Below the pieces are notes generated by a model. The model was given only the letters and a program-made list of their open reading frames with translations, was not told the DNA's origin and did no database searches. A program made the position numbers and the translations under genes. Positions 3,691 to 55,011 of a stretch of DNA of 64,000 nucleotides are shown here, piece after piece. The stretch is from Squalus acanthias. Taxonomy: Eukaryota. Position 1 is the first letter of the stretch. Each line of letters starts with the position of its first letter. Location: NCBI GenBank assembly GCA_030390025.1, contig JASTWF010000334.1:248001-312000 (forward strand). Direction: 5' to 3'.

Positions 3691-4005
3691 ACAGGGAATG
3701 TTTCAACATTAAACATGGAGCAATATTGACCTAGGCACCGGACATGACAAAGACACACCCAGCCCAGTTGCCCCTGCAAAATCCTCCTCACTAACATCTG
3801 GGGATTTGTGCCAAAAAAAGGAGAGCTGTCCCACAGACTAGTTAAGCATCAGCCTGACGTAGTCATACTCACAGGATCATACCTTTCAGCCAATGTCCCA
3901 GACGCCTCCATCAGCATCCCTGGGCATGGCCTGTCCCAGCGGCAGGGCAGACCCACCAGAGGTGGCAGCACTGTGGTATGCAGTTGAGAGGGAGTGGCCT
4001 GGGAG

Positions 4006-4171
4006 CAATGCTCCCGTTTCGCGGCCGCGCAGTTGCACAGCTGTCTAAAGCTCACGAGCAGACCGCTTGCCAGTTTCTCAATGGAGAAACCGCGCATGTG
4101 CGGAAGTTTGAATAGATCACGCAGCCCCTTAAAGGGGCCGTGAACCCCCAAAATAATTAGAGGGAACATTG
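4006..4171. mobile_element. hAT-type MITE (166 bp)
   Basis: Terminal inverted repeats (TIRs) caatgctccc / gggaacattg, with an exact 8-bp TSD cctgggag (3998-4005, 4172-4179). Confidence 0.85.
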
Positions 4172-5726
4172 CCTGGGAGTCTTCAACAATGGTTCTGGAC
4201 CCCATGAAGTCTCATGGCTTCAGGTTAAACGTAGGCAAGGAAACCTTCTGCTAATTACTACCGACCGCCCTCCCTCAGCTAAAGAATCTGTACTCCTCCA
4301 TGTTGAACACCACATGGAAGAAGCACTGAGGGTATCAATGGCACAGAACATACTTTGGGTGGGTGACTTCAATGTCCATCACCAAGAGTGGCTTGGTAGC
4401 ACCACTACTGACAGAGCTGGCTAAGTCCTGAAGGACATAGCTGCCATACTGAGCCTGAAGCAGGTGGTGAGAGAACCAACACAAGTGAAAAACGTACTTG
4501 ACCAATTTACCTCTCGCAGATGGATCTGTCCATGACATTATTGGTAGGAGTGACCACCGCACAGTCCTTGTGGAGCCAAAAGATCTGTCTTTACACTGAG
4601 GACACCCTCCATCATGTTGAGTGGCACTACAGTAGTGAGAAAGGATCTCATAAGGACAGTAGTGAAAAGGGACCTTGGCTCAGAAGATCAGGAAGTAGAA
4701 TCAGTATGGGAGAAGATAAGAAACAACAAGGGACAGGAAACATTGGTGGGAGTAGATTATAGGCCCCCTAAGAGTAGCTATACCGTTGGACACACTATTA
4801 ATCAGTAAATAATAGGAGCTTGTAACAAAGCTCATGCAATCATTGTGGGAGACTTTAATCTTCATATTGACTGGGCAAATCAATTTGGAGGACGAGTTCA
4901 TGGAATGCATTCGAGACAGTTTCCCAGAACAATACTTCATGGAACCAACCAGGGAAGAAACTATTTTAGATCTTGTATTGTGTAATGAGACTGGGTTAAT
5001 TAGTAATCTCATAGTAAAGGAAACTCTGGGGAAGAGCAATCATAATATGATAGAATTTCACATTGGGTTTGAGAGTGAAATACCTCAGTCTAAAACTAGA
5101 TTCTTAAACTTAAATAAAGCCATTTACATAGGTATGAGGAATTAATTGGCTAAGGTAGATTAGGAAATTAGATTAAAAGGTATGACAGTAGATAAGCAAA
5201 CATTTAAAGAAATATTCCAAAATTTTCAATGAATATACATTCCATAGAGAAATAAAAATTCCACAGGAAAAATTAGCCATCTGTGGCTAAATAAAGAAGT
5301 TAAGGATAGTATTAGATTAAAAGAAGCTGATTATAATGTTGTGAAGAATAATAGCAAGCCTAAGGATTGGGAGAGTTTTAGAAACCAGCAAAGGATGACC
5401 AAAACATTGATGAAAAGAGAGAAAAAAGAATATGAGAGTAAACTAGCAAGAAATATTAAAACAGATTGTAAGAGCTTCTACAAGTATGCAAAAATGAAGT
5501 AAATAGCAAAGGTAAGCATTGGTCCCTTAGATGCTGAGACAGGAGAAATTATAATGGGGAATAAGGAAATGGCCGAGACTTTAAACAAATATTTTCTATC
5601 TGCTTTCACAGTAGAAGACACAAAAAACATACCAAAGTAATGGGGAACCAAGGGGCTAATGAGACTGAGCAACTTAAAGCAATTAAGATCAGCAGAGAAA
5701 AAGTGCTTGAGAAACTAATGGGACTT

Positions 5727-13665: not shown

Positions 13666-14348
13666 CTTCTTCTTTCAAAAAATCTTGACAGGTGGCATGT
13701 CATACGTTGACGTGCTCTGTCACTGACTTCCCCCTAATTGGCCTGCTCAGCCCACTGGGCGGGCTTAACAAGGTCAATCACGGGAAAATCCCGTTGGTTG
13801 GCCAGAAGCTGATGGAGGCGGGATTGAAAGCTGGCAAGAAGCAGTCCCACCTCCAAAAGCTTCCCAGCTTGGGGCGCTACCACTGAATTTACGGTGCGGG
13901 GGCGCTAACTTTTTCGGGTTAGCACCCCAAAGGGGGCGCGACTGAATTTTTCCACCTTGGTGTCCTCGGACAGGAAACATAAAGAGTTAGCATGCAGGTA
14001 CAGCAAGCAATCGGAAGGCAAATGGCATGTTATCCTTTATTGCAAGGGGGTTGGAGTACAAGAGTAAGGAAGTCTTGCTACAGTTGTGCAGGGCTTTGGT
14101 GAGACCACACCTGGAGAAATGTGCACAGTTTTAGTCTCCTTATCTGAGGCACTGCAACAATGGTCCACTGGATTGATTGCTAGGATGAGAGGGTTGTCCT
14201 GTGAGAAGAGATTGAGTAGATTGGGCCTATACTCTTCGAGTTTAGAAGAATAGAAGCATAGAAGCATAGAAGATAGGAGCAGGAGTAGGCCATTCGGCCC
14301 CTTGAGCCTGCTCCGCCATTTAATGAGATCATGGCTGATCATCCAAAT

Positions 14349-17280
14349 TCAGTACCCTGTCCCTGCTTTCTCCCCATATCCCTTGATCCCTTTAGCCTTA
14401 AGAAATATATCTATCTCCTTCTTGAATATATTTAATGAATTGGCCTCAACTGCCTTCTGTGGTAGAGAATTCCACAGGTTCACCACTCTCTGGGTGAAGA
14501 AATTCCTCCTCATCTCAGTCCTAAATGGCTTACCCCTTATCGTTAGACTGTGACCTTTGGTTCTGGACTCCCCTGCCATCGCGAACATCCTTCCTGCATC
14601 TAGTCTGTCTAGTCCTGTTAGAATTTTATAAGTTTCAATGAGATCCCCTCTCATTCTTCTAAACTCTAGCGAATATAAGCCTAATCGACCCAATCACTCT
14701 TCATACGTCATTCCTGCCATCCCAGGTATTAGTCTGGTGAATCTTCGCTGCACTCCCTCCATGGCAAGATCATCCTTCCTCAGATAAGGCGACCAAAACT
14801 GCACACAATACTGAAGGTGTGGTCTCACCAAGGCTTTGTTTAACTGCAGCAAGACATCCTTGCTTCTGTATTCGAATCCTCTCGCTATGAAGGCCAACAT
14901 ACCATTTGCCTTCTTAACCGCCTGCTGCACCTGCATGCTTACCTTCAGCGACTGGTGCACAAGGACTCCCAGATCTCGTTGCACCTCACCTTTTCCCAAT
15001 CTATTGCCGTTCAGATAATAATCTGTCTTCCTGTTTTTGCCACCAAAGTGGATAACCTCGCATTTATCCACATTATACTGCATCTGCCATGCATCTACCC
15101 AATCACCCAACCTGTCCAAATCATACTGGAGTTTCTCTGCATCCTCCTCACAGCACACACGCCCACCCAGCTTTGTGTTGTCTGCAAACTTAGAGATATT
15201 ACATCTAGTTCCCTCGTCTAGATCATTAATATATATTGTGAATAGCTGGGGTCCTAGCACCGATCCCTGTGGTACCCCACTAGTCACTGCCTGCCACTCG
15301 GAAAAAGACCTATTTATTCCAACTCTTTGCTTCCTGTCTGCCAACCACTTCTCTATCCAAATCAGTACCTCACCCCCAATCCCATGTGCTTTAACTTTGC
15401 ACGCTAATCTCTTATGCGGGACCTTATCGAAAGCCTTCTGAAAGTCCAAATACACCACATCCACTGTTTCTCCCTTAATTATTCTACCAGTTACATCCTC
15501 AAACATTCCAGTAGATTAGTCAGGCATGATTTACCTTTTGTAAATCCATGTTGACTTTTTCCGATCCTGTCACTGTTTTCCAAGTGCTCTGCTAGTACAT
15601 CTTTTATGATGGACTCTAGCATTTTGCCCACTACCAATGTCAAGCTTATAATTCCCCGTTTTTTCTCTACCACCTTTTTTAAATAGTGGGGTTACATTAG
15701 CTACCCTCCAATCCATAAGAACTATTCCAGAGTCTATAGAATTTTGAAAGGTGACCAGCAATGCATCTACTATTTCTAGGGCCACTTCCTTAAGTACCCT
15801 AGGATGTTGATTATCAGGCCCTGGGGATTTATCGGCCTTCAATCCCGTCAATTTCCCAAACACCATTTCCCTGCAAATAGTGATTTCATTCAATTCCTCC
15901 CTCTCATTAGACCCGATGTTCCCCGACATCTCTGGGAGTTTATTTGTGTCCTCCTTTGTGAAGACAGAACCAAAATATGTATTTAATTCGTCAGCCATTT
16001 CTTTGTTCTCCATTATAAATTCCCCTGATTCTGACTGCAAGGGACCTACGCTTGACTTCACCAATCTTTTTCTCTTCACATATCTATAGAAGCTTTTACA
16101 GTCAGTTTTTATGTTCCCTGAAAGCTTACTCTCATATTCTATTTCCCCCCTCTTAATTAATCCCTTTGTCTTCCTTTGCTGAATCCTATACTGTTTCCAA
16201 TCCTCAGGTTTGCTGCTTTTTCTGGCCAATTTATATGTCCTCTCCTTGGATCTTATGCTATCCCTAATTTCCCTTGTTAGCCATGGTTGAGTCACCTTTT
16301 TTGTTTTATTTTTATGCCAAACAGGGATGAACAAATTCTGTAGTTCATCCATGCTATCTATAAATGTTTGCCATTGCCTATCCACCGTCAACCCTTTAAG
16401 TAACGCTCCCCAATCCATCCTAGCCAACTCGCGCCTCATACCATCGTAGTTTCCTTTATTTAAATTCAGGACCCTAGTCTCTGAGTCAACTACTTCACTC
16501 TCCATCTTAATGAAGAATTCTATCATATTATGATCGCTCCTCCCCAAGGGGCCTCGCACAACAAGATTGCTAATTAATCCTTTCTCATTACATAATACCC
16601 AGTCTAAGATGGCCTGATCTCTAGTAGGTTGCTCGACATATTGGTCCAGGAAACCATCCCGTATACACTCTAGGAATTCCTCCTCCACAGTATTGTTACT
16701 AATTTGGTTAGCCCAATCTATATGTAGATTAAAGTCACCCATGATAACTGCTGTGCCCTTATTGCACGCATCTCTAATTTCCCATTTAATGCCAACCCCA
16801 ACCTCAGCATTACTGTTTGGGGGTCTGTATACAACTCCCACTAACGTTTTCTGCCCCTTGGTATTTCTCAGCTCTCCCCATACAGATTCCACATCATCAG
16901 AGCTAATATCCTTCCTTACTATTGTGTTAATCTCCTCTTTAACCAGCAATGCTACCCCACCTCCTTTCACTTTTTGTCTGTCCTTCTGAATATTGAATAC
17001 CCCTGGATGTTGAATTCCCAACCTTGGTCACCCTGGAGCCATGTCTCCGTAATCCCAATTATATCATATCCATTTACATCTATTTGCGCAGCTAATTCAT
17101 CCACCTTATTACGAATGCTCCTCGCATTAAGACACAAAGCCTCCAGGCTTGTTTTTTTAACACTCTTAGTCCTTTTAGAATTATTATTTACTGTAGCCCT
17201 GTTTGATTTACACCCTTGATTTCTCTGCCTTCCACTTTTGCTTTTCTTCTTCCTGTCTTTTGCTTCTATCCTTGCTTCCC
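14349..17280 (-). pseudogene. CR1 ORF2 (APE endonuclease plus reverse transcriptase), frameshifted
   Basis: GGGVALLV, YRPP, MGDFN and SDHN (endonuclease); KSPGPD, YLDFQKAFD, GVPQGS and KFADNTK (RT). Confidence 0.93.
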
Positions 17281-17322
17281 TTTCCTCTGTTTCCCTGCAC
17301 AGGTTCCCAACCCCCTGCCATT

Positions 17323-18273
17323 TTAGTTTAAACCCTCCCCAACAGCACTAGCAAATACTCCCCCTAGGACATTGGTCCCGGTCCTGCCCAGATGCAAACC
17401 GTCCTGTTTGTACTGGTCCCACCTCCCCCAGAACCGGTTCCAATGTCCCAGGAATTTGAATCCCTCCCACTTGCACCATTCCTCTAGCCACGTATTCATC
17501 TGAAATATCCTTCTATTTCTACTCTGACTAGCACGTGGCACCGGTAGCAATCCTGAGATTACTACCTTTGAAGTCCTATTTTTTAATTTACCTCCTAACT
17601 CCCTATATTCAGGTTTTAGGACCTCATCCCATTTTTTACCTATATCGTTGGTACCTATATGCACCACGACAACTGGCTGTTCACCCTCCCCCTCCAGAAT
17701 GCCCTGCAGCCGCTCCGAGACATCCTTGACCCTTGCACCAGGGAGGCAACATACCATCCGGGAGTCTCATTTGCGGCAGCAGAAACGCCTATCTATTACC
17801 CTTACAATAGAATCCCCTATCACTATAGCTCTCCCGCTCTTTTTCCTCCCATCCTGTGCAGCAGAACCACCCATGGTGCCAGGAAGTTGGTTGCTGCTGC
17901 CTTCCCCCGATAAGCCATCTCCCTCAACAATATCTAAAGTGGTATATCTGTTTGAGAGGGGGATGTCCACAGGGGACCCCTGCACTACCTGCCTGTGCCT
18001 ACTACTCTGCCTGGTGGTCCCCCATTCCCTTCCTGCCTGTGCAGCCTTTACCTGCGGTGTGACCAACTCCCTAAACGTGCTATCCACGATGTCCTCAGCA
18101 TTGCAAATGCTGCAGTATGCATCCATTCGCAGCTCCAGCACCGCAATGCGGTCTGCCAGTAGCTGCAGCTGGATACACTTCCCGCACACATGGTTGTCAG
18201 GGACACAGGAAGTGTCCCTGATTTCCCACATAGTGCAGGAGGAGCATGCCACGGGGCTGAGCTGTGCTGCCAT
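17323..18273 (-). pseudogene. CR1 ORF1: zinc finger/leucine zipper plus SGNH esterase, one in-frame stop
   Basis: CSSC...CGKC followed by a coiled coil; IVIGDSIVR, PGA, HIGTND and DGLHL esterase blocks. The two ORFs share a frame and are split by a stop at 17767-17769. Confidence 0.9.
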
Positions 18274-20852
18274 GACTTATCCTTTAATTAATTTAAATTA
18301 ACTCAAATCAATACCACAAATTACACTACAATTAAATGATATACTCAAGGGCCCTTGTATACTAGCACTCCCTGCTACACAACAGAGACCTTAGAAACTA
18401 TAACCACAAAAATTAGGACCTACTAAACTTTATAAACTATTAACCTTAACTGTCAAACTACAGAGTAGTATAAATACTCACCTGGCCGTACTCACCCAAT
18501 CAGCTGCTTCCCCTTGTCCGCGTCACTTTTTTGAATTGTGACGTGGCTCTGGAACGCCGACCGGTCTGTGAGATTGGTAAGCCTCTGAAAAAAAGCCCGC
18601 GAAAGTGAGTTTAACTACTCACTGTGCTGCTGCTCTCTCCATTCCCGACACTGGCCTCTGAAAAAAAGCCCGCGAAAGTGAGTTTAAATACTCACTCTGC
18701 TGCTGCCACTGAGGTGATCTCATTGAAGCAAATACGATTCTGAGGGGGATTGACAGGATAGATGCTGCGAGGTTGTTTCCCCTGGCTGGAGAGTCTAGAA
18801 CTAGGGGGTATAGTCTCAGGATAAGGGGTCGCCATTTGAGACTAAGGTGAGGAGGAATTTCTTCACTCAGAGGGTTGTGAATTTTTGGACTTCTCTACCC
18901 CAAAGGGCTGTGGATGCTGAGTCGTTGAGTATATTCAAGGTTGAGATAGATACATTTTTGGAATCAAGGGATATGGAGATTGGGTGAGAAAGATCTCTCA
19001 TGATCTTATTGAATGGTGGAGCAGGCTCAAAGCCCATATGGCCTCCACCTGCTCCTACTTCTTATGTTCTTATGTTCTTATATTCGACCGTGCTAAATGG
19101 GATAGATCCAGAACACATCAAGCAGCTCAAAACTGGGCATCCATGAGGCGCTGTGCACCATCAGCAGCAGGAGAATTGTATTCCACCACAATCTGTAACC
19201 TGATGGCCTGCAATATCCCTCACTCTACCATTACCACCAAGCCAAGGGACCAACCCTGGTTCAATGAGAAGTGTAGAAGAGCATGCCAGGAGCAGCATCT
19301 GACATTCCTGAAAATGAGGTGCCAATCTGATGAAGCTAGAGCACAGGACAGCATACATGCTAAACAGTGGCAGCAGCATGCTATAGACAGAGCCAAGTGA
19401 TCGCACTATCAATGGATCAGATCAAACCTCTGCAGTCCTGCCACATCCAGTCATGGCTGGTGGTGGATGATTAAACTAATGGGAGGCGGATGCTCCATGA
19501 AAATCCCTATTCTCAATCATGGTGGAGCCCAGCACATAAGTGTAAAAGACAAGATGACGCATTTGCAAACATCTTCAGCAAGAAGTGCCGAGTGGATGAT
19601 CCATCTTAGCCTCCTCCTGAGATCCCCACCATCACAGAAGCCAGTCTTCAGCCAATTTGATTCACTCCACGTGATATCAAGAAAAGGCTGAATGCGCTGG
19701 ATACAGAAAAAGATATGCGCCCCGAAAACATCCCGGCTGTTGTGCTGAAGACTTGTGCTCCAGAACTAGCTGTGCCTCTAATCAAGCTGTTCCAGTACAG
19801 CTACAACACTGGCATCCGCCCAACAATCTGGCAACTGCCCAGGTATGTCCTGTCCACAAAAAGCAGGACAAATCCAATCCAGCCAATTACCGCCCCATCA
19901 GTCCACTCTCAATAGTGGATGCATTGGTTGTCACCTTCCAAAATTCTATAGGTTATGGAACAGTTCTTGCAGATTGGAGGGTGGCAAATATAACCCCACT
20001 ATTTAAAAAAGGAGGGAGAGAGAAAACAGGGAACTACAGACCGGTTAGCCTAACATCAGTAGTAGGGAAAATGCTGGAGTCTATTAAAAAGGATGTGATA
20101 ACAAGACACTTAGAAAATATCAATGGGATTAGACAAAGTCAACATGGATTTATGAAAGGGAAATCGCGTTTGACAAACCTACTGGAGTTTTTTGAGGATG
20201 TAACTGGTAGAATAGATAAAGGAGAGCCAGTGGATGTGGTGTATTTGGATTTTCAGAAGGCCTTTGATAAAATCCCACATAAGAGGTTAGTGTGCAAAAT
20301 TAAAGCACATGCGATTAGGGTAATAGACTGGCATGGCTTGAAAATTGGTTAACAGACAGGAAACAGAGAGTAGGAATAAATGGGTCTTTTTCAGGGTGGC
20401 AGGCGGTGACTAGTGGGGTACCACAGGGATCAGTGCTTGTGCCCCAGCTATTCACAATATATATCAATGATTTGGATGAGGGAACCAAATGTAATATTTC
20501 CAAGTTTGTTGATGACACGAAACTAGGTGGGATTGTGAGTTGTGAGGACGATGTAAAGAGGCTTCAAGGCGATTTAGACAAGTTGAGTGAGTGGGCAAAT
20601 ACATGGCAGATGCAGTATAACGTGGATAAATGTGAAGTTATCCACTTTGGTAGGAAAAACAGAAAGGTAGAGTATTATTTAAATGGTGATAGATTGGGAA
20701 ATGTTGATGTACAAAGGGACCTGGGTGTCCTTGTACACCAGTTACTGAAAGCAAACATACAGGTGCAGCAAGCAGTTAGGAAGGCAAATGGTTTGTTGGC
20801 CATCATTGCAAGAGGATTTGAGTACAGGAGCAACGATGTCTTACTACAGTTG

Positions 20853-21428
20853 AGAGGTCGCACAACACCAGGTTATAGTCCAACAGTTTTATTTGAAATC
20901 ACAAGCTTTCGGAGCTATCGATTGCTCCTTCCTCAGGTGAAGTAAATTAGATACAGAATCGCCAAAGCATATATAGATAGAAAACATAGCATGTGTACCT
21001 TACAATTGCAGACCACTAAATTAAATCATCCTGACTATCTGCCGAGGTGTGATAAAGTTAATTAAGTCAGCCAGGAAGGTACCACATCAAAGACATAGCA
21101 AGATACAACTGAGACAATGAGGTGTAGTCGCAGGGGTTCTAACGTGTCAAAAGCTGCCGTCTGTATGTAAGACTTAATTAACTTTATCACACCTCGGCAG
21201 ATAGTCAGGATGATTTAATTTAGTGGTCTGCAATTGTAAGGTACACATGCTTTGTTTTCTATCTATATATGCTTTGGCGATTCTGTATCTAATTTACTTC
21301 ACCTGAGGAAGGAGCAATCGATAGCTCCGAAAGCTTGTGATTTCAAATAAAACTGTTGGACTATAACCTGGTGTTGTGCGACCTCTCAATTTTGTCCACC
21401 CCAGTCCAACACCGGCATCTCCGCATCA
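20853..21428. mobile_element. Penelope pseudo-LTR fold-back insertion with two opposed hammerhead motifs
   Basis: ~219-bp inverted arms (20850-21068 / 21171-21389), 102-bp spacer and a ~39-nt tail. Exact 12-bp TSD ttactacagttg (20841-20852, 21429-21440). Same sequence as the terminus of the GIY-YIG copies at 36336 and 52436. Confidence 0.9.
21298..21341 (+). ncRNA. Minimal type I hammerhead ribozyme motif (mirror copy on minus at ~20898-20941)
   Basis: ttcac CTGAGGA a ggagc aatcgata gctcc GAAA gc tt gtga: core, 5-bp stem II, palindromic AAGCTT stem III, stem I tcac/gtga. Confidence 0.8.
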
Positions 21429-23424
21429 TTACTACAGTTGTACAGGGCCTTGGTGAGACCACACCTGGAGTACTGTGTGCAGTTTTGTCTCCTTACCTAA
21501 GAAAGGATATACTTGCGATAGAGGGAGTGTAGCGAAGGTTCACCAGATTGATTCCTGGGATGGCAGACTGTCTTATGAGGAGAGATTGGGTCAACTAGGC
21601 CTGTATTCCGTAGAGTTCAGAAGAATGAGAGGGGATCTCATTGAAACATATAAAATTCTGACAGGGCTGGACAGACTGGATGCAGGGAGGATGTTTCCCC
21701 TGGCTGGGGGGTCTAGAACGAGGGGTCACAGTCTCAGCATATGGGGTAGCACATTTAGGACTGAGATGAGGAGAAATTTCTTCACTCAGAGGGTGGTGAA
21801 CCTGTGGAATTCTCTACCACAGAAGGCTGTGGAGGCCAAGTCACTGAATATATTTAAGAAGGAGATAGATAGATTTCTAGACACAAAAGGCAACAAGGGG
21901 TATGGGGAGAGAGCGGGAATATGGTATTGAGATAGAGGATCAGCCATGATCATATTGAATGGCGGAGCAGGCTCGAAGGGCCGAATGGCCTACTCCTGCT
22001 TCTATTTTTCTATGTTTCTAATCAACGGCAAAGTGATGGAAGGTGTCGTCGACAGTGCTATCAAGTGCCACTTACTCATCAATAACCTGCTCACCGATGT
22101 TCAGTTTGGGTTCCGCCAGGACCACTCGGCTCCAGACCTCATTACAGCCTTGGTCCAAACATGGACAAAAGAGTTGAATTCCAGAGGTGAGGTGAAAGTG
22201 ACAGCCCTTGACATCAAGGCAGCATTTGACTGAGTGTGGCATCAAGGAGCCCTAGTAAAACTTAAATCAATGGGAATCAGGGGGAAAACTCTCCACTGGC
22301 TAGAGTCTTACCTAGCACAAAGGAAGATGGTTGTTCTTGTTGGAGACCAATCATCTCAGCCCCAGAACATTGCTGGAGGAGTTCCTCAGGGCAGTGTCCT
22401 AGGCGCAACCATCTCCAGCTGCTGCATCCAACCTTCCCTCCATCATAAGGTAAGAGGTGCGAATGTTCACTGATGATTGCAGTGTTCAGATCCATTCACA
22501 GCTCCTCAGGTGCAGCAGCAAGACCTGGACAACATTGAGGCTTGGGTTGATAAGTGGCAAGTAACATTCGGGCCACACAAGTGCCAGGCAATGACTATCT
22601 GCAACGAGCGTCAAACTCCCTCCCCTTGACATTCAATGACATTACCATCGCCGAAACCCCCACCATCAACATCCTGGGGGGTCACCATTGACCAGAAACT
22701 TAACTGGAACAGCCACATATACACTGTAGCTACAAGAGCAGGTTAGAGGCTGGGTATTCTGCAGCAAGTGACTCGGCAAGTGACTCAGCTTCTGACTCCC
22801 CAAAGCCTTTCCGCCATCTACAAGGCACAAGTCAGGAGTGTGATGGAATGCTCTCCACTTGCCTGGCTGTGTGCAGCTCCAACAACATTCAAGAAGCTCA
22901 ACACCATCCAGGACAAAACAGCCCGCTTGATTGGCAAACCATCCAGCACCTTAAACATTCACTCCCTCCACCACCGTCACAATGTGGCTGCAGTGTGTAC
23001 CATCTACAAGATACACTGCAGCAACTCGCCAAGGCTTCTTTGGCAGCACCTCCCAAATCCATGACCTCTACCACCTAGAAGGACAAGGGCAGCAAGCACA
23101 TGGGAACACAATCACCTGCAAGTTGCCCTCTAAGCACACACCTTCCTGACTTTGAAATATGTTGCCGTTCCTTCCTCGCCGCAGGGTCAAAATCCTGGAA
23201 CTCCCTCCCTAACAGCACTGTGGGAGTACCTTCACCACATGGACTGTAGCGGTTCAAGAAGGTGGCTCACCACCACCTTCTCAAGGGCAATTAGTGATGG
23301 GCAATAAATGCTGGCCTTGCCAGCGATGCCCACATCCCATGAATGAATTTAAAAAACGGAACTGTACATGGTCAATGTAAAAAGGTGATAAACAACAAAT
23401 GGTCTGTTTTATTTTTATTTAAAG

Positions 23425-23859: not shown

Positions 23860-24566
23860 GAGGAACATAAATACAGCGCAAGCGCGGAGTGAGAGCGACA
23901 GAGAGCATTGTGGGAGATGGAGGAACATAAATACAGCGCAGGCGCGGAGAGCGAGGGACAGAGAGCATTGTGGGAGATGGAGGAACATAAATACAGCGCA
24001 GGCGCAGAGAGCGAGGGACAGAGAGCATTGTGGGAGATGGAGGAACATAAATACAGCGCAGGCGCAGAGAGAGAGCGACAGAGAGCATTGTGGGAGATGG
24101 AGGAACATAAATACAGCGCAGGCGCAGAGAGAGAGCGACAGAGAGCATTGTGGGAGATGGAGGAACATAAATACAGCGCAGGCGCAGAGAGAGAGCGACA
24201 GAGAGCATTGTGGGAGATGGAGGAACATAAATACAGCGCAGGCGCGGAGAGAGAGCGACAGAGAGCATTGTGGGAGATGGAGGAACATAAATACAGCGCA
24301 GGCGCGGAGAGAGAGCGACAGAGAGCATTGTGGGAGATGGAGGAACATAAATACAACGCAGGCGCAGAGAGAGAGCGACAGAGAGCATTGTGGGAGATGG
24401 AGGAACATAAATACAACGCAGGCGCAGAGAGAGAGCGACAGAGAGCATTGTGGGAGATGGAGGAACATAAATACAACGCAGGCGCAGAGAGAGAGCGACA
24501 GAGAGCATTGTGGGAGATGGAGGAACATAAATACAGCGCAGGCGCAGAGAGAGAGCGACAGAGAGC
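23860..24566. repeat. 60-bp minisatellite, ~12 near-identical units
   Basis: Unit gaggaacataaatacagcgcaggcgcagagagagagcgacagagagcattgtgggagatg, which stacks exactly in the 60-nt lines. Confidence 0.97.
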
Positions 24567-24705
24567 GTCGCAAACGAACACAGAATGAAAAAGTGAAGCA
24601 GTGATGTCACAAGCAGCGTGGAGGGTGCAGCCCGAAAATTACAGATAGATATTTATGAAGTGGATTTGGTAATTGATAATAAGTTCGTTTAAATATTTAC
24701 TTATA

Positions 24706-24990
24706 AAAATGGAAATTGCTGGAAATACTCAAGAGGTCAGGCAGCATCTGTGGGGAGAGAAACAGAGTTAACGTTTCAGGTCATTGACCTTTCATCAGAA
24801 CTGGCAAAGGTTCGAGATGTAACAGGTTTTAAGCAAGTCAAAGGAGAAGTTGTTCAATGTAAGAACAAGTTCAGCCAGGAGGAGGACTGTAGTGGTGGAT
24901 AGGGATTGATTGGGCCTCCATTCCAGGATGAAGGGCCCTCCTGGTAGGGAATGGAGGTGCAGAGGGACTGGTCATCCATGGTGAAAAGAA
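24706..24990 (-). mobile_element. Penelope-like remnant: hammerhead-bearing terminus plus RT fragment
   Basis: Minus strand CTGATGA a aggtca a tgacct GAAA cgttaac (24767-24801). LFTMDDQSLCTSIP resembles the Penelope RT motif D-V-x-S-L-(F/Y)-T-S-I-P. Confidence 0.75.
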
Positions 24991-26608
24991 CATTTTGGTG
25001 AAAATTTAGCATACTGTATTCGCTGCTGGTAATGATTTTGCTGTTGCCATTTATAGCTCCTCTAGAACCATTTTTTGTTTCTTTACTTGTCCTATTAGCA
25101 CTCCCTGGGTATGCCCTGTCCCACCAGCAGGACAGACCCACCAGATGTGGCGGCACAGTGGTATACAGTCAGGAGGGAGTGGCCCTGGGAGTTCTCAACA
25201 TTGACTTCGGACCCCATGAAGGCTCATGACATCAGGCCAAACATGAGCAAGGGAACCTCCTGCTGATTAACATCTACCACCCTCCCTCAGCTGCTGAATC
25301 AGTACTCCTCCATGTTGAACACCACTTGGAAGAAGCACGGAGGGTAGCAAGAACACAGAATTTACTCTGGGTGGGGAACTTCAATGTCCATCCCCAAGAG
25401 TGGCTCGGTAGCACCTATACTGACCAAGCTGGCTAAGTCCTGAAGGCCATAGCTGTCAAACTGGGCCTGCGGCAGGTGGTGAGAGAATCAACATGAGGGA
25501 AAAACCTACTTGACCTCATTCGCACCAATTTACGTGTCGCAGATGCATCTGTCCATGACAGTATTGGTAGGAGTGACCACCGCACAGTCCTTGTGGAGAC
25601 AAAGCCCCGTCTTCACACAGAGGACACCCTCTATCATATTATGTGGCACTACCACCATGGGATAGATTCAGAACAGAGCTAGCAGCTCCAAACAGGGCAT
25701 CCATGAGGTGCTGGGGTCATCAACAGCAGCAGAATAGTGTTTTAACGTCAATCTGTGGCCTCATGGCCCAGCATATCCCTCACTCTACCATTACCATCAA
25801 GCCAGACGACTGACTCTGGCTCAATGAGGAATGTAGAAAAGCATGCCAGGAGCAGCACCAGACGTACCTAAAAATAAAGTGCCAACAAGGTGAAGCTACA
25901 ACACAGGACTACATACATGCTAAACAGCAGGAAAAGCATGCTATAGATAGAGCTAAACAATCCCATAACGAACGGATCAACTCAAAGCTACACAGTTCTG
26001 CCACATCTAGTCATGAATGGTGGTGGACGATTAAACAACTAATGGGAGGAGGAGGCTCCATGTACATCCCCATCCTCAATCATGGCGGATCCCAGCATGC
26101 GAGTGCAAAAGACAAGGCTGAAGCGGATAATCCATAACGGCCTCTTCCTGAGCTCCCACCACCACAGAAGCTAGTCTTCAGCCAATTCGATTCACTCCAC
26201 GTGATTTCAAGAAATGGCTGAGCGCACTATATAAAGCAAAGGCTATGGGTCCCGACAACATCCCGGCTGTCGTGCTGAAGACTTGTGATCCAGAACAAGC
26301 CATGCCTCCAGCCAAGCTGTTCCAGTATAGCTGGCATCTACCCGACAAAGTGGAACATTGCCCAGGTATGTCCTGTCCACAAAAAGCAGGACAAATATAA
26401 TCCAGCCAATTATCGCCCCCATCAGTTTACTCTCAATCATCAGCAAAGTGATGGAAGGTGTCGTTGACAGTGCTATCAAGCAACACTTACCAATAACCTG
26501 CTCACCAATGCCCAGTTTTGCTTCCGCCAAGACCACTCGGTTCCAGACCTATTGCAGCTTTGGTCCAAACATGGACAAAAGAGCTGAACTCCAGAGGTGA
26601 GGTGAGAG

Positions 26609-29600
26609 TTTATTTTTATTCGTTCATGGGATGTGGGCGTCGCTGGCATTTATTGCTCATCCCTAATTGCCCTTGAGAAGGTGGTGGTGAGCCGTCTTCT
26701 TGAACCGCTGCAGTCCGTGTGGTGAAGGTACTCCCACAGTGCTGTTAGGGAGTTCCTAGATTTTGACCCCGCGACGATGAGGGAATGGCAATATATTTCC
26801 AAGTCAGGATGGTGTGTATCTTGGAGGAGAACTTGCAGGTAGTGGTGTTCCCATGCGCCTGCTGCCCTTGTCCTTCTAGGTGGTAGAGGTCGCGGGTTTG
26901 GGAAGTGTTGCTGAAGAAACTTTGTCGAATTGTTGCAGTGCATCTTGTAGATGGTCCACACTGCAGCCACAGTACGCCGGTGGTGGAGGGAGTGAATGTT
27001 TAAGGTGGTGGATGAGGTACCAATCAAGCGGGCTGCTTTGTCCTGGATGGTGTTGAGCTTCTTGAATGTTGTTGGAGCTGCACTCGTCCAGGCATGTTGA
27101 GAGTATTCCATCACACTCCTGACTTGTACCTTGTAAATGGTGGAAAGGCTTTGGGGAATAAGGAGGCCAGAGAATACCCTGCCTCTGACCTGCTCTTGTC
27201 GCCACAGTATTTATGCGGCTGGTCCAGTTATGTTTCTGGTCAATGGTTACCTCAAGGATGTTGATAGTGGGGGATTCGGCGATGGTAATGCCGTTGAATG
27301 TCATGGGGCGGTGGCTAGACTCGCTTGTTGGAGCTAATCATTGCCTGGCACATGTGTGGCGTGAATGTTACCTGCCACTTATCAGATCAAGCCTGAATGT
27401 CGTCCAGGCCTTGCAGCATGCAGGCACAAACTGCTTCATTATCTGAGGAGTTGTGAATGGCGCTGAACACTGTGCAATCATCAGCGACCATCCCCACTTC
27501 TGACCTTATGATGGAGGGAAGGTCATTGATGAAGCAGCTGAAGATGGTTAGGCCTAGGACACTGCCCTGAGGAACTCCTGCAGTGATGTCCTGGGGCTGA
27601 GATGATTGACCTCCAACTACCACAACCATCTTCCTTTGTGTTAGGTATAACTCCATCAAGTGGAGAGTTTTCCCCCTGATTCCCATTGACTTCAATTTTA
27701 CTAGGGCTCCTTGATGCCACACTCAGTCAAATGCTGCCTTGATGTCAAGGGCAATGACTCTCACCTCACCTCTGGAATTCAGCTCTTTTGTCCATGTTTG
27801 GACTAAATCTGTAATGAGATTGGGAGCCGAGTGGTCTTGGCGGAACCCAAACTGAGCATCGGTGAGAAGGTTATTACTGAGTAAGTGCCGCTTGATAGCA
27901 CTGTCGACGACACCATCTATCACTTTGCTGATGATTGAAAGTATGGGGCAGTAATTGGCTGGATTTGATTTGTCCTGCTGTTTATGGACAGGACATACCT
28001 GGGCAGTTTTCCACATTGTCGGGTGGATGCCAGTGTTGTAGCTGTACTGGAACAGCTTGGCTAGAGGCGCGACCAGTTCTGGAGCACAAGTCTTCAGCAC
28101 GACAGCGTTGATGTTGTCAGGGCCCATAGCCTTTGCTGTATCCAATGCGCTCAGCCGTTTCTTGATATCACACGGAGTGAATCAAATTGGCTGAAGACTG
28201 GCTTCTGTGATGGTGGGGACCTCGGGAGTAGGCCAATATGGATCATCCACTTGGCACTTCTGGCTGAAGATGGTTGCAAATACTTCAGCCTTGTCTTTTG
28301 TGCTCGCATGTTGGGCTCCGCCATCATTGAGGATGGGGATATTCATGGAGCCTCCTCCTCCCGTTAGATGTTTAACTCTCCACCACTATTCACGACTGGA
28401 TGTGGCAGGACTGCAGAGCTTTGATCTGATCTGTTGATTGTGGAATCGCATAGCTCTGCCTATAGCATGCTGCTTTCACTGTTTAGCATGCATCTAGTCT
28501 TGGGTTGCAGCTTCCCCAGGTTGGCACCTCATTTTTAGATACGCCTGGTGCTGCTCCTGGCATGCTCTTCTACACTCCTCTTTGAACCAGGGTTGGTCTC
28601 CTGGCTTGATGGTAATGGTAGAGTGAGGGATATGCTGGGCCATGAGGTGCCACACAACATGATGGAGGGTGTCCTCAGTGTGAAGATGGGACTTCATCTC
28701 CACAAGGACTGTGCAGTGGTCACTCCTACCAATGCTGTCATAGACAGGTGCATCTGTGACAGACAGATTGGTGAGGATGAGGTCAAGTACATTTTTCTCT
28801 CTTGTACACTGAAGTCCCCCACCCAGAGTACATTCTGTGCCCTTGCTACCCTCAGTGCTTCTTCCAAGTGATGTTCAACAGGGAGGATAACTGATTCATC
28901 AGCTGAGGGAGGGCGGTAGGTGGTAATCAGCAGGAGGTTTCCTTGCCCATGCTTGACCTGAAGCCATGAGCCTTCATGGGGTTTGGAGTCAATGTTGAGG
29001 ACTCCCAGGGCCACTCCCAACTGTATACCACTGTGCCGCCACCTCTGGTGGGTCTGTCCTGCCGGTGGGACAGGTCATACCCAGGGATGGTGATGGAGGA
29101 GTTTGGGACATTGGCTGAAAGGTATGATTCTGTGAGTATGACTATGTCAGGCTATTGCTTGACTAGTCTGTGGGACAGCTCTCCCAATTTTGGCACAAGT
29201 CCCCAGATTATCGACTGGGCTGGGTGTGCCATTTTCATGTCCTAATCTGGTGCCAGGTTGATGCCAGGTGGTCCGTCTGGTTTTATTCTTATTATTGCTT
29301 CTCGTAGCGGTTTGTTACAACTGAGTGGCATGCTTGGCCGTTTCAGCGGCAGTTAAGTCAACTACATTGCTGTGGGTCTGGAGTCACATATAGGACAGAC
29401 CAGGTAAGGACGGCAGATTTCCTTCCCTAAAGGACATTAGTAAACAATCCAATAGCTTCATGGTCATCATTACTGATACTAGCTTTTTATTCCAGATTTA
29501 TTTAATTAACTGAATTCAAATTCCCCAGCTGCCTTGGTGGGATTATGAACTCACGTCTCCGGTCATTAATCCAGGCCTCTGGATTACTAGTCCAGTAACA

Positions 29601-29620
29601 TAACCACTATGCTACCGTTC
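26609..29620 (-). mobile_element. Apparently full-length second-family LINE (~3 kb) with a tRNA-like 5' head and no ORF1
   Basis: 3' tail at 26609-26680, RT ORF pieces at 27387-28145, endonuclease start (NxxGLVPKLGELSHRL...PDIVILTESYL) near 29125-29210, and a SINE-like leader at 29270-29620. Confidence 0.88.
29535..29618 (-). promoter_or_regulatory. tRNA-derived Pol III internal promoter (A box, anticodon arm, degenerate B box)
   Basis: Minus strand: TAGCATAGTGG (A box), ctgga-CTAGTAA-tccag (5-bp stem, 7-nt loop, AGT anticodon), gagttcataatccc (B-box-like). Confidence 0.7.
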
Positions 29621-30794
29621 ATGATTGCCCTTGACATCAAGGCAGCATTTGACTGAGTGTGGCATCAAGGAGCCCTAGTAAAATTGAAATCAATTGAAAT
29701 CAGGGGGAAAACTCTCCACTTGATGGAGTCATACCTAGCACAAAGGAAGATGTTTGTGGTTGTTGGAGGTCAATCATCTCAGCCCCAGAACATCGCTGCA
29801 GGTGTTCCTCAGGGCAGGGTCTCAACCATCTTCAGCTGCATCATCAATGACCTTCCCCCCAACATAAGGTCAAAAGTGGGGATGTTCGCTGATGATTGCA
29901 CAGTGTTCAATTCCATTCGCAACTCCTCAGATAATGAAGCAGTCCATGCCCGCATGCTGCAAGACCTGGACGACATTCAGGCTTGGGCTGATAAGTGACA
30001 ATTAATATTGGTACCACACAAGTGACAGGCAATGACCATCTCCAACAAGAGTGAGTCTAACCACCGCCCCTTGACATTCAACGGCATTACCATCACCGAA
30101 TCCCCCACCATCAACATCCTGAGAGTCACCATTGATCAGCAACTTAACTGGACCAGCCACATAAATACTGTGCCTTCAAGTACAGTTCAGAGGCTGAGTA
30201 TTCTGCAGCGAGTGACTCACATCATGACTCCCCCAAACCTTTCCCCTAAACCTTTCCACCATCTACAAGGCACAAGTGAGGAGTGTGACAAAATAGTCAC
30301 CACTTGCCTGGATGAGTGCAGTTGCAACTACACTCAAGAAGCTGGACACCATCCAGGACAAAGCAACCCGCTTGATTTGCTCCCCATCCACCACCTTAAA
30401 CATTCACTCCCTCCACCACCGGCGCACCGTGGCTGCAGTGTGTACCATCTATACAATACACTGCAGCAACTCGCCGAGGCTTCTTTGGCAGAACCTCCAA
30501 AACCCGCAAACACTACCACCTAGAAGGACAAGGGCAGCAGGTACATGAGAACACCAAGACGTGCAAGTTCCTCTCCAAGTCACACACCATCCTGACTTGA
30601 AAATATATCTCCGTTCCTTCATTGTCGCTGGGTCATAATCCTGGAAATCTTTCCCTAACAGCACTATGGGAGCACACAGATGGCAGTGATTCAAGAAGGC
30701 AGCTCACCAGCACCTTCTCCACGGCAATTAGGGATGGCCAATAACTGCTGGCCTTGCCAGCGACGCCCACATCCTATGAACAATTAAAATAAAA

Positions 30795-31056
30795 GATAGA
30801 GGAACGTACACTGGGTGTAACACTGTAGACAGAGAAATGTACACTGGTTGTAACACTGCAGATAGAGGAACGTACACTGGGTGTAAAACTGTAGATAGAG
30901 GAACGTACACTGGGTGTAACACTGCAGATAGAGGAACGTACACTGGGTGTAACACTGCAGCTGGAGAAATGTACACTGGGTGTAACACTAGATAGAGGAA
31001 CGTACACTGGGTGTAACACTGCAGGTAGAGAAATGTACACTGGGTGTAACACTACA
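30795..31056. repeat. ~33-bp minisatellite, ~8 units
   Basis: Unit gatagaggaacgtacactgggtgtaacactgca with variants, starting right after the LINE A-rich tail. Confidence 0.92.
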
Positions 31057-31621
31057 GTTTCTCCCTCCACTCAATTGACCATCTCTGTGGATTCTGCAGT
31101 GATGAGGCTAAACTGAGACCTGTGTTATAATTGGCCCATATTTACTGAACTGATCCTGACATGTACTGAAGCCATACTCCGAATGGGCAGGACTCCTCTC
31201 TGTGTTTACACAACATTCCCAGAAAATTATTCAACCTTCTTGTATCCGGCGCTCACTTTACTGATGCACCAAAAGCCCCTCCCGCTTTTTCACAGGGTTT
31301 CAATTCCCAGATTTAAAATTATATAATCTGGACACAGAGAATCTAACTCCAGAAATCACAGCCTTTGCTCCAATCGTGTGAAGTCCGTGCAGTGGGGAAG
31401 GTGATTGTTTAGCCCTGGTGGTGAGGCCTTGCTGTCCACCCCACACTGGGAAACCCAGCCCAGGGTGAGCTCGCAATCTTCAGTCAGGAACTGTCCAAAC
31501 CCCACTGAATATTGTGAGGTTTCCAGATTTCAGTGAGACACACACTGACTGAGTGCACACGGCAACACAACAGGAAGTGCATCACTTTATTTACAAGGTG
31601 AACTCATAGTATCATAAGTTT

Positions 31622-38230: not shown

Positions 38231-38990
38231 TTTTGGGCACCGCACTTTGGGAAGGATGTGAAGGTCTTAGAGAGGGTGCAGAAAAGATCTACAAGAATGG
38301 TTCCAGGGATGAGGGATTTCAGTTACGTGGATAGACTGGAGAAGCTGGGGTTGTTCTCCTTCGACCAGAGAAGGGTGAGAGGAGAAATAACAATAGAAAG
38401 TGCTGGAAACACTCAGCAGGTCAGCCAGCATCGAGGAGAGAGAAACAGAGTCAAAGTTTCGGGTCAAACCCTTCGTCAGACACGTTGACTCTGTTTCTCT
38501 CTCCTCAATGCCGGCTGACCTGCTGAGTGTTTCCAGCACTTTCTGTTGTTATTTCAGATTTCCAGCATCCGCAGTATTTTGCTATTGTATTAAGGTTGAG
38601 AGGAGATTTGATAGAGGTGTTCAAAATCATGAGGGGTCTAGACAGAGTAGATAGAGAGAAACTGTTCCCATTGGTGGAAGGGTCGAGAACCAGAGGACAC
38701 AGATTTAAGGTGATTGGCAGAAGAACCAAATGCGTTATGAGGAAATACTTTTTTACGCAGCGAGTGGTTATGATCTGGAATGCACTGCCTGAAAGGGTGG
38801 TGGAGGCAGATTCAATCGTGGTTTTCAAAAGGGAATTGGATAAATACCTGAAGGAAAAATTTTTGCAGGGCTACGGGGAAAGGGAAGGGGTGTGGGACGA
38901 GCTGAAGTGCTCTTTCAGAAAGCCGGCATGGGCTCGACGGGCTGAATGGCCTCCTTCTGTGCTGTAACCATTCTATGATTCTATGATTCT
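38231..38990 (+). mobile_element. CR1 3' fragment inserted in the Harbinger transposase
   Basis: LERVQKR, RGDLIEVFKIMRG, WNALP; ttctatgattctatgattct tail. Confidence 0.92.
38386..38591. mobile_element. Penelope-derived fold-back element with hammerhead motif
   Basis: Inverted arms plus tail; minus strand CTGACGA a gggt ttg accc GAAA. 15-bp TSD aagggtgagaggaga / aaggttgagaggaga (38371-38385, 38592-38606). Confidence 0.8.
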
Positions 38991-39307
38991 AGGTGACTGA
39001 CAGCCTCTTTGCCAGGGTCGAGCAGTATATCACCTTGCCCACTGATGTCAGCAGTCACCATGGCACAGATTGTGGCTTTGCTGAAGGAGATGGCTTCCCT
39101 CCCTTGTAGGGCGTGATTGAAAGTTCACACGTGGGCATTAGGGCGCCAGAACATGAGTAGGTGAAATTTGTCAACAGAGAGCCCAGCATCAGAAAGGCAG
39201 GGAGCTGCCCTTCTACTCATGTCTGCAGCCAGCAAGTCTTTGAGAGAGTCATTGAACATCAGTTTTGTAGGTGAAGAGATCACCTGACTGATCCCTTCCA
39301 TCAATTC

Positions 39308-42300
39308 TGATGATCCCCAATCTGTGTCCCTGATAATCCTCAATCTCAGTCTGTGATAATCCTCAATCTGTGTCCCTGATAATCCTCTATCTCAGTCTGT
39401 GATAATCCTCAATCTGTGTCCCTGATAATCCTCAATCTGTGTCCCTGATAATCCTCAATCTGTGACCCTGATGATCCTCAATCTGTGTCCCTGATAATCC
39501 TCAATCTGTGTCCTGAAAATCCTCAATCTGCGTCCCTGATAATCCTCAATCTGTGTCCTGAAAATCCTCAATCTGTGTCCCTGATAATCCTCAATCTGTT
39601 TCTGTGATAATCCTCAATCTGTGTTCCTGATAATCCTCAATCTATAGCCCTGATAATCCTCAATCTGTGTCCCTGATAATCCTCAATCTGTGTCCCTGAT
39701 AATCCTCAATCTGTGCCCCTGATAATCCTCAATCTGTGTCCCTGATAATCCTCAATCTGTGTCGCTGATAATCCTCAATCTGTGTCCTGATAATCCTCAA
39801 TCTGTGTCCTGATGATCTTCAATCTGTGTCCTGATAATCCTCAATCTGTGTCCCTGATAATCATCAATCGGTCTCCCTGATAATACTCAATCTGTGTCCC
39901 TGATAATACTCAATCTGTTTCCCTGATAATCCTCAATCTGTGACCCTGATGATCCTCAATCTGTGTCCTGATAATCCTCAATCTGTGTCCTGAAAATCCT
40001 CAATCTGTGTCCCTGATAATCCTCAATCTGTGTCTGTGATAATCCTCAATCTGTGTTCCTGATAATCCTCAATCTATGGCCCTGATAATCCTCAATCTGT
40101 GTCCCTGATAATCCTCAATCTGTGTCCCTGATAATCCTCAATCTGTGCCCCTGATAATCCTCAATCTGTGTCCCTGATAATCCTCAATCTGTGTCCCTGA
40201 TAATCCTCAATCTGTGTCCTGATAATCCTCAATCTGTGTCCTGATGATCTTCAATCTGTGTCCTGATAATCCTCAATCTGTGTCCCTGATAATCCTCAAT
40301 CTGTCTCCCTGATAATCCTCAATCTGTGTCCCTGATAATCCTCAATCTGTGTCCTTGATAATCCTCAATCTGTGTCCCTGATAATCTTCAATCTGTGTCC
40401 CTGATAATCCTCAATCTGTGTTCCTGATAATCCTCAATCTGTCTCCCTGATAATCCTCAATCTGTGTCCCTGATAATCCTCAAACTGTGTCCTGATAATC
40501 CTCAATCTGTGTCCTGATAATCCTCAATCTGTGTCCCTGATAATCCTCAATCTGTGTCCCTGATAATCCTCAATCTGTGTCCCTGATAATCCTCAATCTC
40601 AGTCTGTGATAATCCTCAATCTGTGTCCTGATAATCCTCAATCTGTGTCCCTGATAATCCTCAATCTGTGTCCCTGATAATCCTCAATCTGTGTCCCTGA
40701 TAATCCTCAATCTGTTTCCCTGACAATCCTCAATCTGTGTCCCTGATAATCCTCAATCTGTGCCATTGATAATCCTCAATCTGTGTCCTGATAATCTTCA
40801 ATCTTTGTCCCTGATAATCCTCAATCTCTGTCCCTCATAATCCTCAATCTGAGTCCCTCATAATCCACAATCTGTGTCCCTCATAATCCTCAATCTGTGT
40901 CCCTGATAATCTTCAATCTGTGTCCCTGATAATCCTCAATCTGTGTTCCTGATAATCCTCAATCTGTCTCCCTGATAATCCTCAATCTGTGTCCCTGATA
41001 ATCCTCAAACTGTGTCCTGATAATCCTCAATCTGTGTCCTGATAATCCTCAATCTGTGTCCCTGATAATCCTCAATCTGTGTCCCTGATAATCCTCAATC
41101 TGTGTCCCTGATAATCCTCAATCTCAGTCTGTGATAATCCTCAATCTGTGTCCTGATAATCCTCAATCTGTGTCCCTGATAATCCTCAATCTGTGTCCTG
41201 ATAATCCTCAATCTGTGTCCCTGATCATCCTCAATCTGTGTCCCTCATAATCCTCAATCTGTGTCCCTGATAATCCTCAATCTGTGTCCCTGATAATCCT
41301 CAATCTGTGTCCCTGATAATCCTCAATCTGTGCCACTGATAATCCTCAATCTGTGTCCTGATAATCTTCAATCTTTGTCCCTGATAATCCTCAATCTCTG
41401 TCCCTCATAATCCTCAATCTGAGTCCCTCATAATCCTCAATCTGTGTCCCTCATAATCCTCAATCTGTGTCCCTGATAATCCTCAATCTGTGTCCCTGAT
41501 AATCCTCAATCTGTGTCCCTCATAATCCTCAATCTGTGTCCCTGATAATCCTCAATCTGTGTCCTGATAATCTTCAATCTGTGTCCGGATAATCCTCAAT
41601 CAGTGTCCTGATAATCCTCAATCTGTGTCCCTGATAATCCTCAATCTGTGTCCTTGATAATCCTCAATCTGTGTCCTGATAATCTTCAATCTGTGTCCCT
41701 GATAATCCTCAATCTGTGTCCTGATAATCCTCAATCTGTGTCCTGATAATCCTCAATCTGCGCCCGATAATCCTGAATCTGTGTCCTGATAATCCTCAAT
41801 CTGTGTCCTGATAATCTTCAATCTTTGTCCTGATGATCCTCAATCTGTGTCCTGATAATCCTCAATCTGTGTCGCTGATAATCCTCAATCTGTGTCCCTG
41901 ATAATCCTCAATCTGTGTCCCTGATAATCCTCAATCTGTGTCCCTGATAATCCTCAATCTGTTTCACTGATAATCCTCAATCTGTGTCCCTGATAATCCT
42001 CAATCTGTGCCACTGATAATCCTCAATCTGTGTCCTGATAATCTTCAATCTTTGTCCCTGATAATCCTCAATCTCTGTCCCTCATAATCCTCAATCTGAG
42101 TCCCTCATAATCCTCAATCTGTGTCCCTCATAATCCTCAATCTGTGTCCTGATAATCCTCAATCTGTGTCCCTGATAATCCTCAATCTGTGTCCCTGATA
42201 ATCCTCAATCTGTGTCCCTGATAATCCTCAATCTGTGCCACTGATAATCCTCAATCTGTGTCCTGATAATCTTCAATCTTTGTCCCTGATAATCCTCAAT

Positions 42301-54686: not shown

Positions 54687-55011
54687 AGGAGTCATCAGGG
54701 ATTGCGGCGCTGACAAACCGGTTTTCAGAGCTGATTACCGGTGAGGGTCGCCAACACCTTGAGGGAGTGCAGTGCAGAGGAAAGACACGGCACCGTGGGG
54801 ACACAGCAAAGTGTAGAAATGTAGCAGTCACAGGCAATACAATCATTAGGGAGACTGACAGGCATTTTTATAAAATCGTGAAATTGGTGCACTATTATCA
54901 TGATATACGAGTTAACTCACCACACAACAACAACAACAACTTGCACTTATATAGTGCCTTTAACACAGTAACACCTCCCAAAGTGCTTCAGAGGAGCGTT
55001 ATAAAACAAAA

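Follow-up and report, generated by a model that had tools for sequence, protein, structure and literature searches.

The window, which is the entire 64-kb stretch of Squalus acanthias DNA analysed here, carries on its minus strand a 3012-nt LINE whose coding region is preceded by a tRNA-like head. We assign this element to the Zenon family on the basis of its 5′ identity to published Zenon consensus sequences and its crab-like protein relatives. A sequence-only reading had proposed that a tRNA-like head, a body, an endonuclease, a reverse transcriptase (RT) and a tail are united in one minus-strand element at this site, and the observation as a whole is confirmed, with its bounds corrected from 26609..29620 to 26610..29621. 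The parts of the element and three further copies of its family are as follows.

26610..29621, minus strand: whole element, an elasmobranch Zenon (CR1-group) LINE with a tRNA-like head; near-full-length, decayed
29536..29621, minus strand: tRNA-like head (Rfam tRNA score of 18.8 bits, below the cut-off, and family 5′ edge)
29604..29614, minus strand: A box, an exact TRGCNNARYGG
29579..29595, minus strand: anticodon-like arm with a 5-bp stem and a 7-nt loop, AGT at 29588-29586
29540..29550, minus strand: B box, with an extra T at 29545 that is private to the window copy
29320..29535, minus strand: conserved non-coding body, with motifs in 6-7 of the 7 elasmobranch Zenon consensus sequences
29209..29319, minus strand: linker upstream of the endonuclease (alignment with copy 3716)
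28700..29208 (lower bound approximate), minus strand: APE endonuclease region, broken (tblastn of relatives containing PF03372, lowest E 5.7e-10)
27339..27968, minus strand: reverse transcriptase domain (Pfam RVT_1, E 2.2e-22)
26610..26662, minus strand: short 3′ UTR followed by an A-rich tail (3′ edge of the family at 26613)
25102..30793, plus strand: older host copy of the same family, 5′-truncated and interrupted by the element, with its halves at 25102-26609 and 29622-30793
19097..23355, plus strand: third copy, 5′-truncated, 84% identity (19097-19913 and 22015-23355), interrupted by other repeats
3716..4630, plus strand: fourth copy, partial (linker and endonuclease, headless)

Structure, decay and surroundings of the element

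Body and linker together occupy 330 nt between the head and the endonuclease, which begins approximately 410 nt from the 5′ edge. Its start was placed near 29208 by tblastn of relatives; alignment with copy 3716 reveals a 22-nt deletion in the window copy at about this position, and 563 contigs show loose ends at 29208. Neither of the two broken endonuclease pieces gives a Pfam match. As had been stated from the letters of the DNA, copy 3716 has the linker and endonuclease in common with the element and stops before the head, which is also lacking in the copy at 19097-23355. Short A-rich ends are present in three of the window copies, and these correspond to a poly-A type of tail, as in Zenon. 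The window copy has accumulated 8 stops in 747 in-frame codons, four frame changes and several deletions, and it is dead.

The element is inserted, in the opposite orientation, within the RT region of a member of its own family. The pieces of this host copy are 81-89% identical to the element, and the copy continues without a break on the two sides of the insertion (positions 1944|1946 of the element, with an overlap of 0-1 nt). Because the two host halves join without loss at 1944/1946, the head and the tail were inserted together in one event. No target-site duplication is evident in the flanks of the insertion at 26609 and 29622. A 33-bp minisatellite (30794-31057) directly follows the host copy on its 3′ side.

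Several unrelated repeats are found elsewhere in the window. Two long arrays of a 23-bp satellite lie in opposite orientations at 39307-47717 and 55011-62535 (372 and 332 copies), and a 60-bp minisatellite at 23897-24566 is composed of 11 copies that are 98% alike. A well-preserved CR1 LINE on the minus strand (14252-18300) carries an esterase (GDSL) ORF1, an endonuclease and an RT; it is 95.5% identical to 5739-7118 and is poor in runs of four T residues (T4). Palindromic or inverted-repeat elements at 8048-8230, 38384-38555, 24692-24838, 48129-48613, 20850-21389 and 10518-10773 are probably MITE-like remnants of DNA transposons.

Despite its decay, the coding plan of the element can be read from its relatives in the window. 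All four of its frame changes are bridged in one frame by other window copies, and therefore the family has a single endonuclease-RT ORF, a point that the sequence-only reading had marked for checking. Heptranchias and Mobula supply the best protein matches (67-76%), and the best long-protein relatives are endonuclease-RT proteins of 912-993 residues with 31-38% identity (best 120 of 1072 matches). No shark protein longer than 857 aa occurs among these best 120 of 1072 matches, which is a weak indication, and a metagenome scan returned distant relatives only and no shark DNA. Pieces of the LINE are annotated as exons in predicted shark and ray proteins (P0125, P0181 and P0212, for example in an aldo-keto reductase-like model), and these exons are probably annotation artefacts.

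In the published survey, Zenon LINEs of sharks and rays cluster with elements of crustaceans, are without exception devoid of ORF1 and end in a poly-A tail (PMC13343379). Thus, the absence of ORF1 that had been emphasized in the sequence-only reading is true of this element, where no ORF of at least 100 codons lies between the head and the endonuclease, and it is not a surprise, as all surveyed Zenons lack this ORF. Zenon accounts for 0.7-6.8% of seven elasmobranch genomes, counted as all Zenon-masked bases, and for 0.018% of a chimaera genome (PMC13343379). Intact ORFs are rare in that survey (for example 0/2313, 1/1419 and 3/612), with denominators that are apparently copies of at least 80% length and not head-bearing copies. 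Table S4 of the same source lists 76-179 kb of Zenon-masked DNA in crocodile, alligator, opah and chimaera, and about 1-10 kb in the majority of species that lack Zenon; the former may derive from an old SINE that shares the head, body or tail.

The tRNA-like head and its junction with the endonuclease

The description of the head in the sequence-only reading holds for the A box, which is an exact match located 7 nt inside the 5′ end of the element, and for the anticodon-like arm with AGT, and it needs amendment at the B box. The extra T of this box at 29545 is missing from 101, 122, 122 and 16 contigs of four sequencing runs. Since the A-box motif alone is not rare in the 64-kb window (2 matches, 2.67 expected), this box counts by virtue of its position at the insertion edge. 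The Rfam alignment of the head (E 0.6, cut-off 29 bits) covers model positions 7-64 only and includes the D arm, the anticodon arm and the T arm, the last of which is preceded by a 21-nt insert. ARAGORN calls no tRNA in the head, and an Rfam scan of the whole 64-kb window gives no match at the cut-off. The head region folds better than shuffled sequences (z -2.47), and its predicted minimum-energy fold is not a cloverleaf.

The assignment of the donor to tRNA-Thr is tentative, with only the three letters of the anticodon pointing to it. The whale-shark consensus has other letters in that loop, and SquAca_Zenon-2 has lost part of the arm. Among viral tRNAs that share the stem pattern of the head, 0 of the 82 called are Thr (at least 120 loci), a comparison that is uninformative since these are viral and not vertebrate tRNAs. 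The head may resemble tRNA-Gln. By eye, the insert between the anticodon arm and the T arm (29578-29557, minus strand) looks like a second anticodon arm in the Squalus-type sequence, and at this place the published great white, whale shark and catshark consensus sequences have different letters with the pairing apparently kept. The element exhibits the feature of SINE2 elements that consists of a tRNA-like 5′ head with A and B boxes, although the whole-tRNA score is below the cut-off. Rather than being short and non-coding as SINE2 elements are, it is 3.0 kb long and encodes an endonuclease and an RT.

The supplement of PMC13343379 holds ten Zenon consensus sequences, of which we compared the first 400 nt. 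These sequences were extended automatically from RT seeds and then inspected. Seven of them (SquAca_Zenon-1, -2 and -3 and the CarCar, RhiTyp, ScyCan and HypSab_Zenon-1 sequences; 2886-3314 nt) represent five elasmobranch species including a ray, and all seven start with the head and pass through the same junction and linker, with endonuclease codons reached within the first 400 nt in two. The head is missing from all three hagfish and coelacanth 5′ ends over the same length. By eye, the A box is present in 7/7 and the B box (GTTCRANNC) in 6/7 of the elasmobranch sequences, the sequence between the boxes is divergent among them, and the 5′ region of our element is nearly identical to SquAca_Zenon-1, -2 and -3 over 400 nt. 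Each of four motifs taken from the window occurs in 5-7 of the seven sequences, and one of these motifs is also present in one unrelated CR1. A conventional 5′ UTR or ORF1 was found in none of the seven, and the longest genomic insertions match the consensus length in five of seven cases (3220-3322 nt; PMC13343379).

Public sequencing runs searched as contigs (X2, X7, X10 and X15) provide a second view of the family. A sharp 5′ edge with mixed flanks is located at 29618-29620 (712 contigs in X2, and 812 and 1052 in X7), and the 3′ edge at 26613 likewise has mixed flanks (799 contigs in X2). Summed contig depth, which is not equivalent to copy number, is 0.85-1.78 million over the head and body and 0.73-1.21 million over the endonuclease in X2, and is two- to threefold higher over the head and body in X7. 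A dip in depth at 29185-29289 falls where the window copy is deleted. No piece bridging the body and the endonuclease is present among the contig pieces listed (483,738 further pieces exist). Contigs of X15 cover all 30 bins of the element; that this run represents RNA is a guess, and its coverage is uninformative on strand or polymerase.

Because the same junction starts 7/7 of the published elasmobranch consensus sequences, a lineage is indicated, as the sequence-only reading had supposed, rather than a chance adjacency of SINE and LINE. The junction recurs beyond this locus, and those seven sequences offer no conventional ORF1 or 5′ UTR as an alternative beginning. We therefore consider it nearly certain that the tRNA-headed LINE architecture is a family-wide unit.

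Transcription, translation start and origin

Terminators for RNA polymerase III (Pol III), which had been raised as a further check, are absent from the element in that its sense strand carries no T4 in 3012 nt. This count compares with 4.8 for mononucleotide shuffles (P 0.002), 3.0 for dinucleotide shuffles (P 0.046) and 2.6 under a codon-aware null in which the protein and codon usage are held (P about 0.04). Across the four window copies, which are not independent, the codon-aware null predicts 5.7-5.9 runs and 2 are observed (P 0.05-0.06). Both of these runs in about 8.8 kb are located in the host copy, and other copies have no T4 at the same places. In the first 400 nt, by eye, T4 is present in 0/7 elasmobranch versus 3/3 hagfish and coelacanth Zenon 5′ ends (PMC13343379).

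Controls from other elements point both ways. Twelve CR1-type LINE stretches of the window contain 49 T4 runs in 15,889 nt, and they too lie below the codon-aware expectation (44 vs 58-63), with the best-preserved CR1 being particularly poor (3 vs 8.8-10.3 expected). None of 30 ORFs of relatives is free of T4, and some relatives are T4-poor (1 vs 5.0; 1 vs 3.2). Synonymous codons provide no sign of specific TT avoidance (NTT/NTC skew, odds ratio 0.87, p 0.3), and C4 runs are low as well (28 vs 39.7 in dinucleotide shuffles). As far as its letters can tell, the element is permissive for Pol III read-through, and selection for a T4-free strand is suggested.

The translation start is also unconventional in appearance. 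No Met codon occurs before or early in the endonuclease of copy 3716 or the host copy. The in-frame ATGs of the element (29238 and 29232) are both upstream of the 22-nt deletion, and intact copies would not have them in frame. By eye, the published elasmobranch 5′ ends are without an in-frame ATG; a linker ATG exists in 6/7 consensus sequences, and in HypSab, the only consensus showing both features, it is out of frame with the endonuclease. Given that an ordinary in-frame ATG is missing before the endonuclease, we infer a non-AUG start or a frameshift for the endonuclease-RT protein.

We propose that, in an ancestor of sharks and rays, an ORF1-less Zenon LINE gained its 5′ UTR by capturing the head and body, which form the front half, of a tRNA-derived SINE; a template switch during reverse transcription would be the simplest route. 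The fused 3.3-kb element is shown to have spread as a unit. Its head would most likely serve as an internal promoter whose A and B boxes recruit Pol III, such that transcription would start at the first base of the element, read through the T4-free coding strand and end in flanking DNA. The uncapped RNA would then be translated without a normal AUG, as no in-frame AUG precedes the endonuclease, and the conserved body is a candidate translation-recruiting signal, which is the weakest step of the proposal. The single endonuclease-RT protein would insert new copies from the 3′ tail by target-primed reverse transcription, a process that is established for LINEs. Finally, internal deletions may convert the element into short head-plus-tail forms that behave as SINEs.

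As judged from the sequences compared, the origin of the head is most simply explained by its capture in an early elasmobranch, and horizontal spread among sharks is a possible alternative. An A- and B-box pair upstream of the endonuclease was found in 0 of 21 distant relatives, and none of the 32 relative loci scanned (of 80) contains a tRNA. A search with the body in 80 distant relative loci gave nothing better than E 0.015; this search is weak because the relatives are only about 22-49% identical in protein. A motif of the body was also not found in viral and prokaryote contigs.

Short forms of the expected kind are hinted at by two body-to-tail joints that differ between species. One links 26676 with 29356 and is seen in 7 contigs of X10, and the other links 26726 with 29302 and is seen in 1 contig of X2 (both among the 15 joints listed, with 10,276 more). 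The contigs with these joints have depths of 891 and 748, versus about 5-15 for most listed contigs, and this hints at multi-copy short elements. Such joints would fit SINE-like offspring produced by internal deletion, and the Zenon of moths is known to yield internal-deletion derivatives that have no tRNA head (PMC6740152). The two options offered by the sequence-only reading, namely a SINE promoter on an autonomous element and the parent of a SINE, are probably both true and not alternatives.

That Pol III makes the RNA of the tRNA-headed Zenon LINE is, in our estimation, marginally better than an even proposition. Pol III products are usually short, uncapped and poorly translated, which counts against it. 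The same fused lineage could instead be transcribed by Pol II, either with the captured body as the promoter region or in transcripts that run in from host genes, with the A and B boxes being passengers, enhancers or relevant to the short derivatives only, and with T4 scarcity resulting from a C-rich, T-poor strand. LINEs are established as Pol II units (PMC5786205), the codon-aware T4 signal is weak and shared by the T4-poor CR1 control, the preference for TTC recurs in T-poor relatives, and the body looks at least as well conserved as the head. However, a Pol II unit does not readily account for the retention of both boxes in five species despite the changed intervening sequence, for the coincidence of the 5′ edge with tRNA position 1, or for the lack of any T4 common to the copies in about 8.8 kb, and we hold it to be possible at well under even chances. 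The coincidence of edge and tRNA position 1, together with the better-than-shuffled fold, would also suit a processing signal by which a host nuclease of the RNase P type trims a read-through RNA to a uniform 5′ end, for which the R2 ribozyme is a precedent (PMC5786205). This explanation is improbable, given that the acceptor stem is unmatched (model positions 7-64 only), that no cloverleaf results from minimum-energy folding, and that the scarcity of T4 is left unexplained.

Two further alternatives concern how the head and the LINE came together. They might be separate entities, an abundant tail-sharing SINE being joined to truncated LINEs by template switches and the consensus sequences being extension artefacts; head-to-tail joints do exist, and the automatically extended, later inspected sequences were compared over their first 400 nt only. 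We find this very unlikely, because the same junction and linker recur in five species and in an independent window copy, genomic insertions reach the full consensus length of 3220-3322 nt in five of seven cases, and an alternative 5′ UTR is absent among the seven consensus sequences. Conversely, a bare tRNA might have added the head to an old Zenon 5′ UTR that is now the body, with no SINE donor and with SINEs as later internal-deletion offspring. The body was matched to no named SINE, with reference sequences of the Deu and V SINEs being absent from the texts and supplements covered, the named shark SINEs HE1 and SacSINE1 have other tail partners, the two joints differ between species, and the moth derivatives of PMC6740152 set a precedent. 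Against this order of events stands the failure to match the body in 80 distant relatives, a weak objection at about 22-49% protein identity. We regard the bare-tRNA order as a tentative contender, well short of even; it is compatible with either polymerase, and its likelihood overlaps those of the other alternatives. Taken as a whole, the most far-reaching reading is of an autonomous Pol III-transcribed LINE that, since before the shark/ray split, would have used a captured tRNA promoter, a T4-free 2.8-kb frame and an uncapped, non-AUG RNA to attain a genome share as high as about 7% and to yield SINEs by internal deletion. To this combination we would assign a probability somewhat below one half.

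Relation to known systems and biological meaning

The element belongs to the same family as the published elasmobranch Zenon LINEs, which are about 3.3 kb long and have no ORF1, an A-rich tail and crustacean-like protein relatives (PMC13343379); compared with their consensus, the window copy has deletions and measures 3012 nt. Whether the structure was already annotated therefore has a divided answer. The family is published as Zenon, and its head goes unremarked in the main text of PMC13343379, where ‘tRNA’ and ‘promoter’ have 0 occurrences and ‘SINE’ appears in a reference only. A whale-shark preprint likewise mentions the family by name only. The Persaeus SIDE of lepidopteran Zenon (PMC6740152) is likewise a case in which a Zenon LINE gives rise to short elements sharing both of its ends. 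However, Persaeus is described there without tRNA homology or a Pol III promoter, whereas here the coding parent itself has the tRNA head.

An order of tRNA head, body and LINE tail is also seen in ManaSINE1 of AviRTE and in the bipartite SINEs of RTE and Vingi LINEs (PMC5786205, PMC4844689). In those systems, the head is on the non-coding SINE only and the LINE is taken to be made by Pol II, and the LINE groups listed as making bipartite forms are only RTE, Ingi, Vingi and R2 (PMC5786205, PMC4844689). Among shark repeats, SacSINE1 (Deu) and HE1 (V) are tRNA-headed too. Compared by description only, they differ in their tails, which match L2-2_CM or CR1-4_DR-like LINEs for SacSINE1 and the HER1 LINE for HE1 (PMC5499810, PMC3747384). 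A derivation of the body from the Deu domain of SacSINE1 was set aside, since the tail of that SINE is of the L2 type.

In the literature covered, which lies outside Repbase, Dfam and subscription papers, neither a tRNA-headed Zenon nor a LINE made by Pol III was found described. The Zenon family and its lack of ORF1 are thus already known, and the tRNA head on the coding form is apparently undescribed, in that we did not find it described. R2 is a non-LTR element with a single ORF, and its RNA, which is translated without an AUG, does not have the form of a capped mRNA made by Pol II. Unlike the tRNA-headed Zenon, R2 relies on co-transcription by Pol I and on ribozyme cleavage, is site-specific and has a restriction-like endonuclease.

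The textbook division holds that LINEs are coding units made by Pol II and that SINEs are non-coding units made by Pol III. SINEs are also said to be unable to encode protein (PMC5786205). Here, a SINE head is carried on the coding form of a family that covers 0.7-6.8% of seven elasmobranch genomes. If the element is made by Pol III, it would be a natural 3.3-kb Pol III coding RNA, and it would provide a test case for cap-independent, non-AUG translation as well as for the origin of SINE bodies. Even if it is not, repeat libraries will mis-count the heads as SINE copies, and the capture would date a promoter swap to early elasmobranchs.
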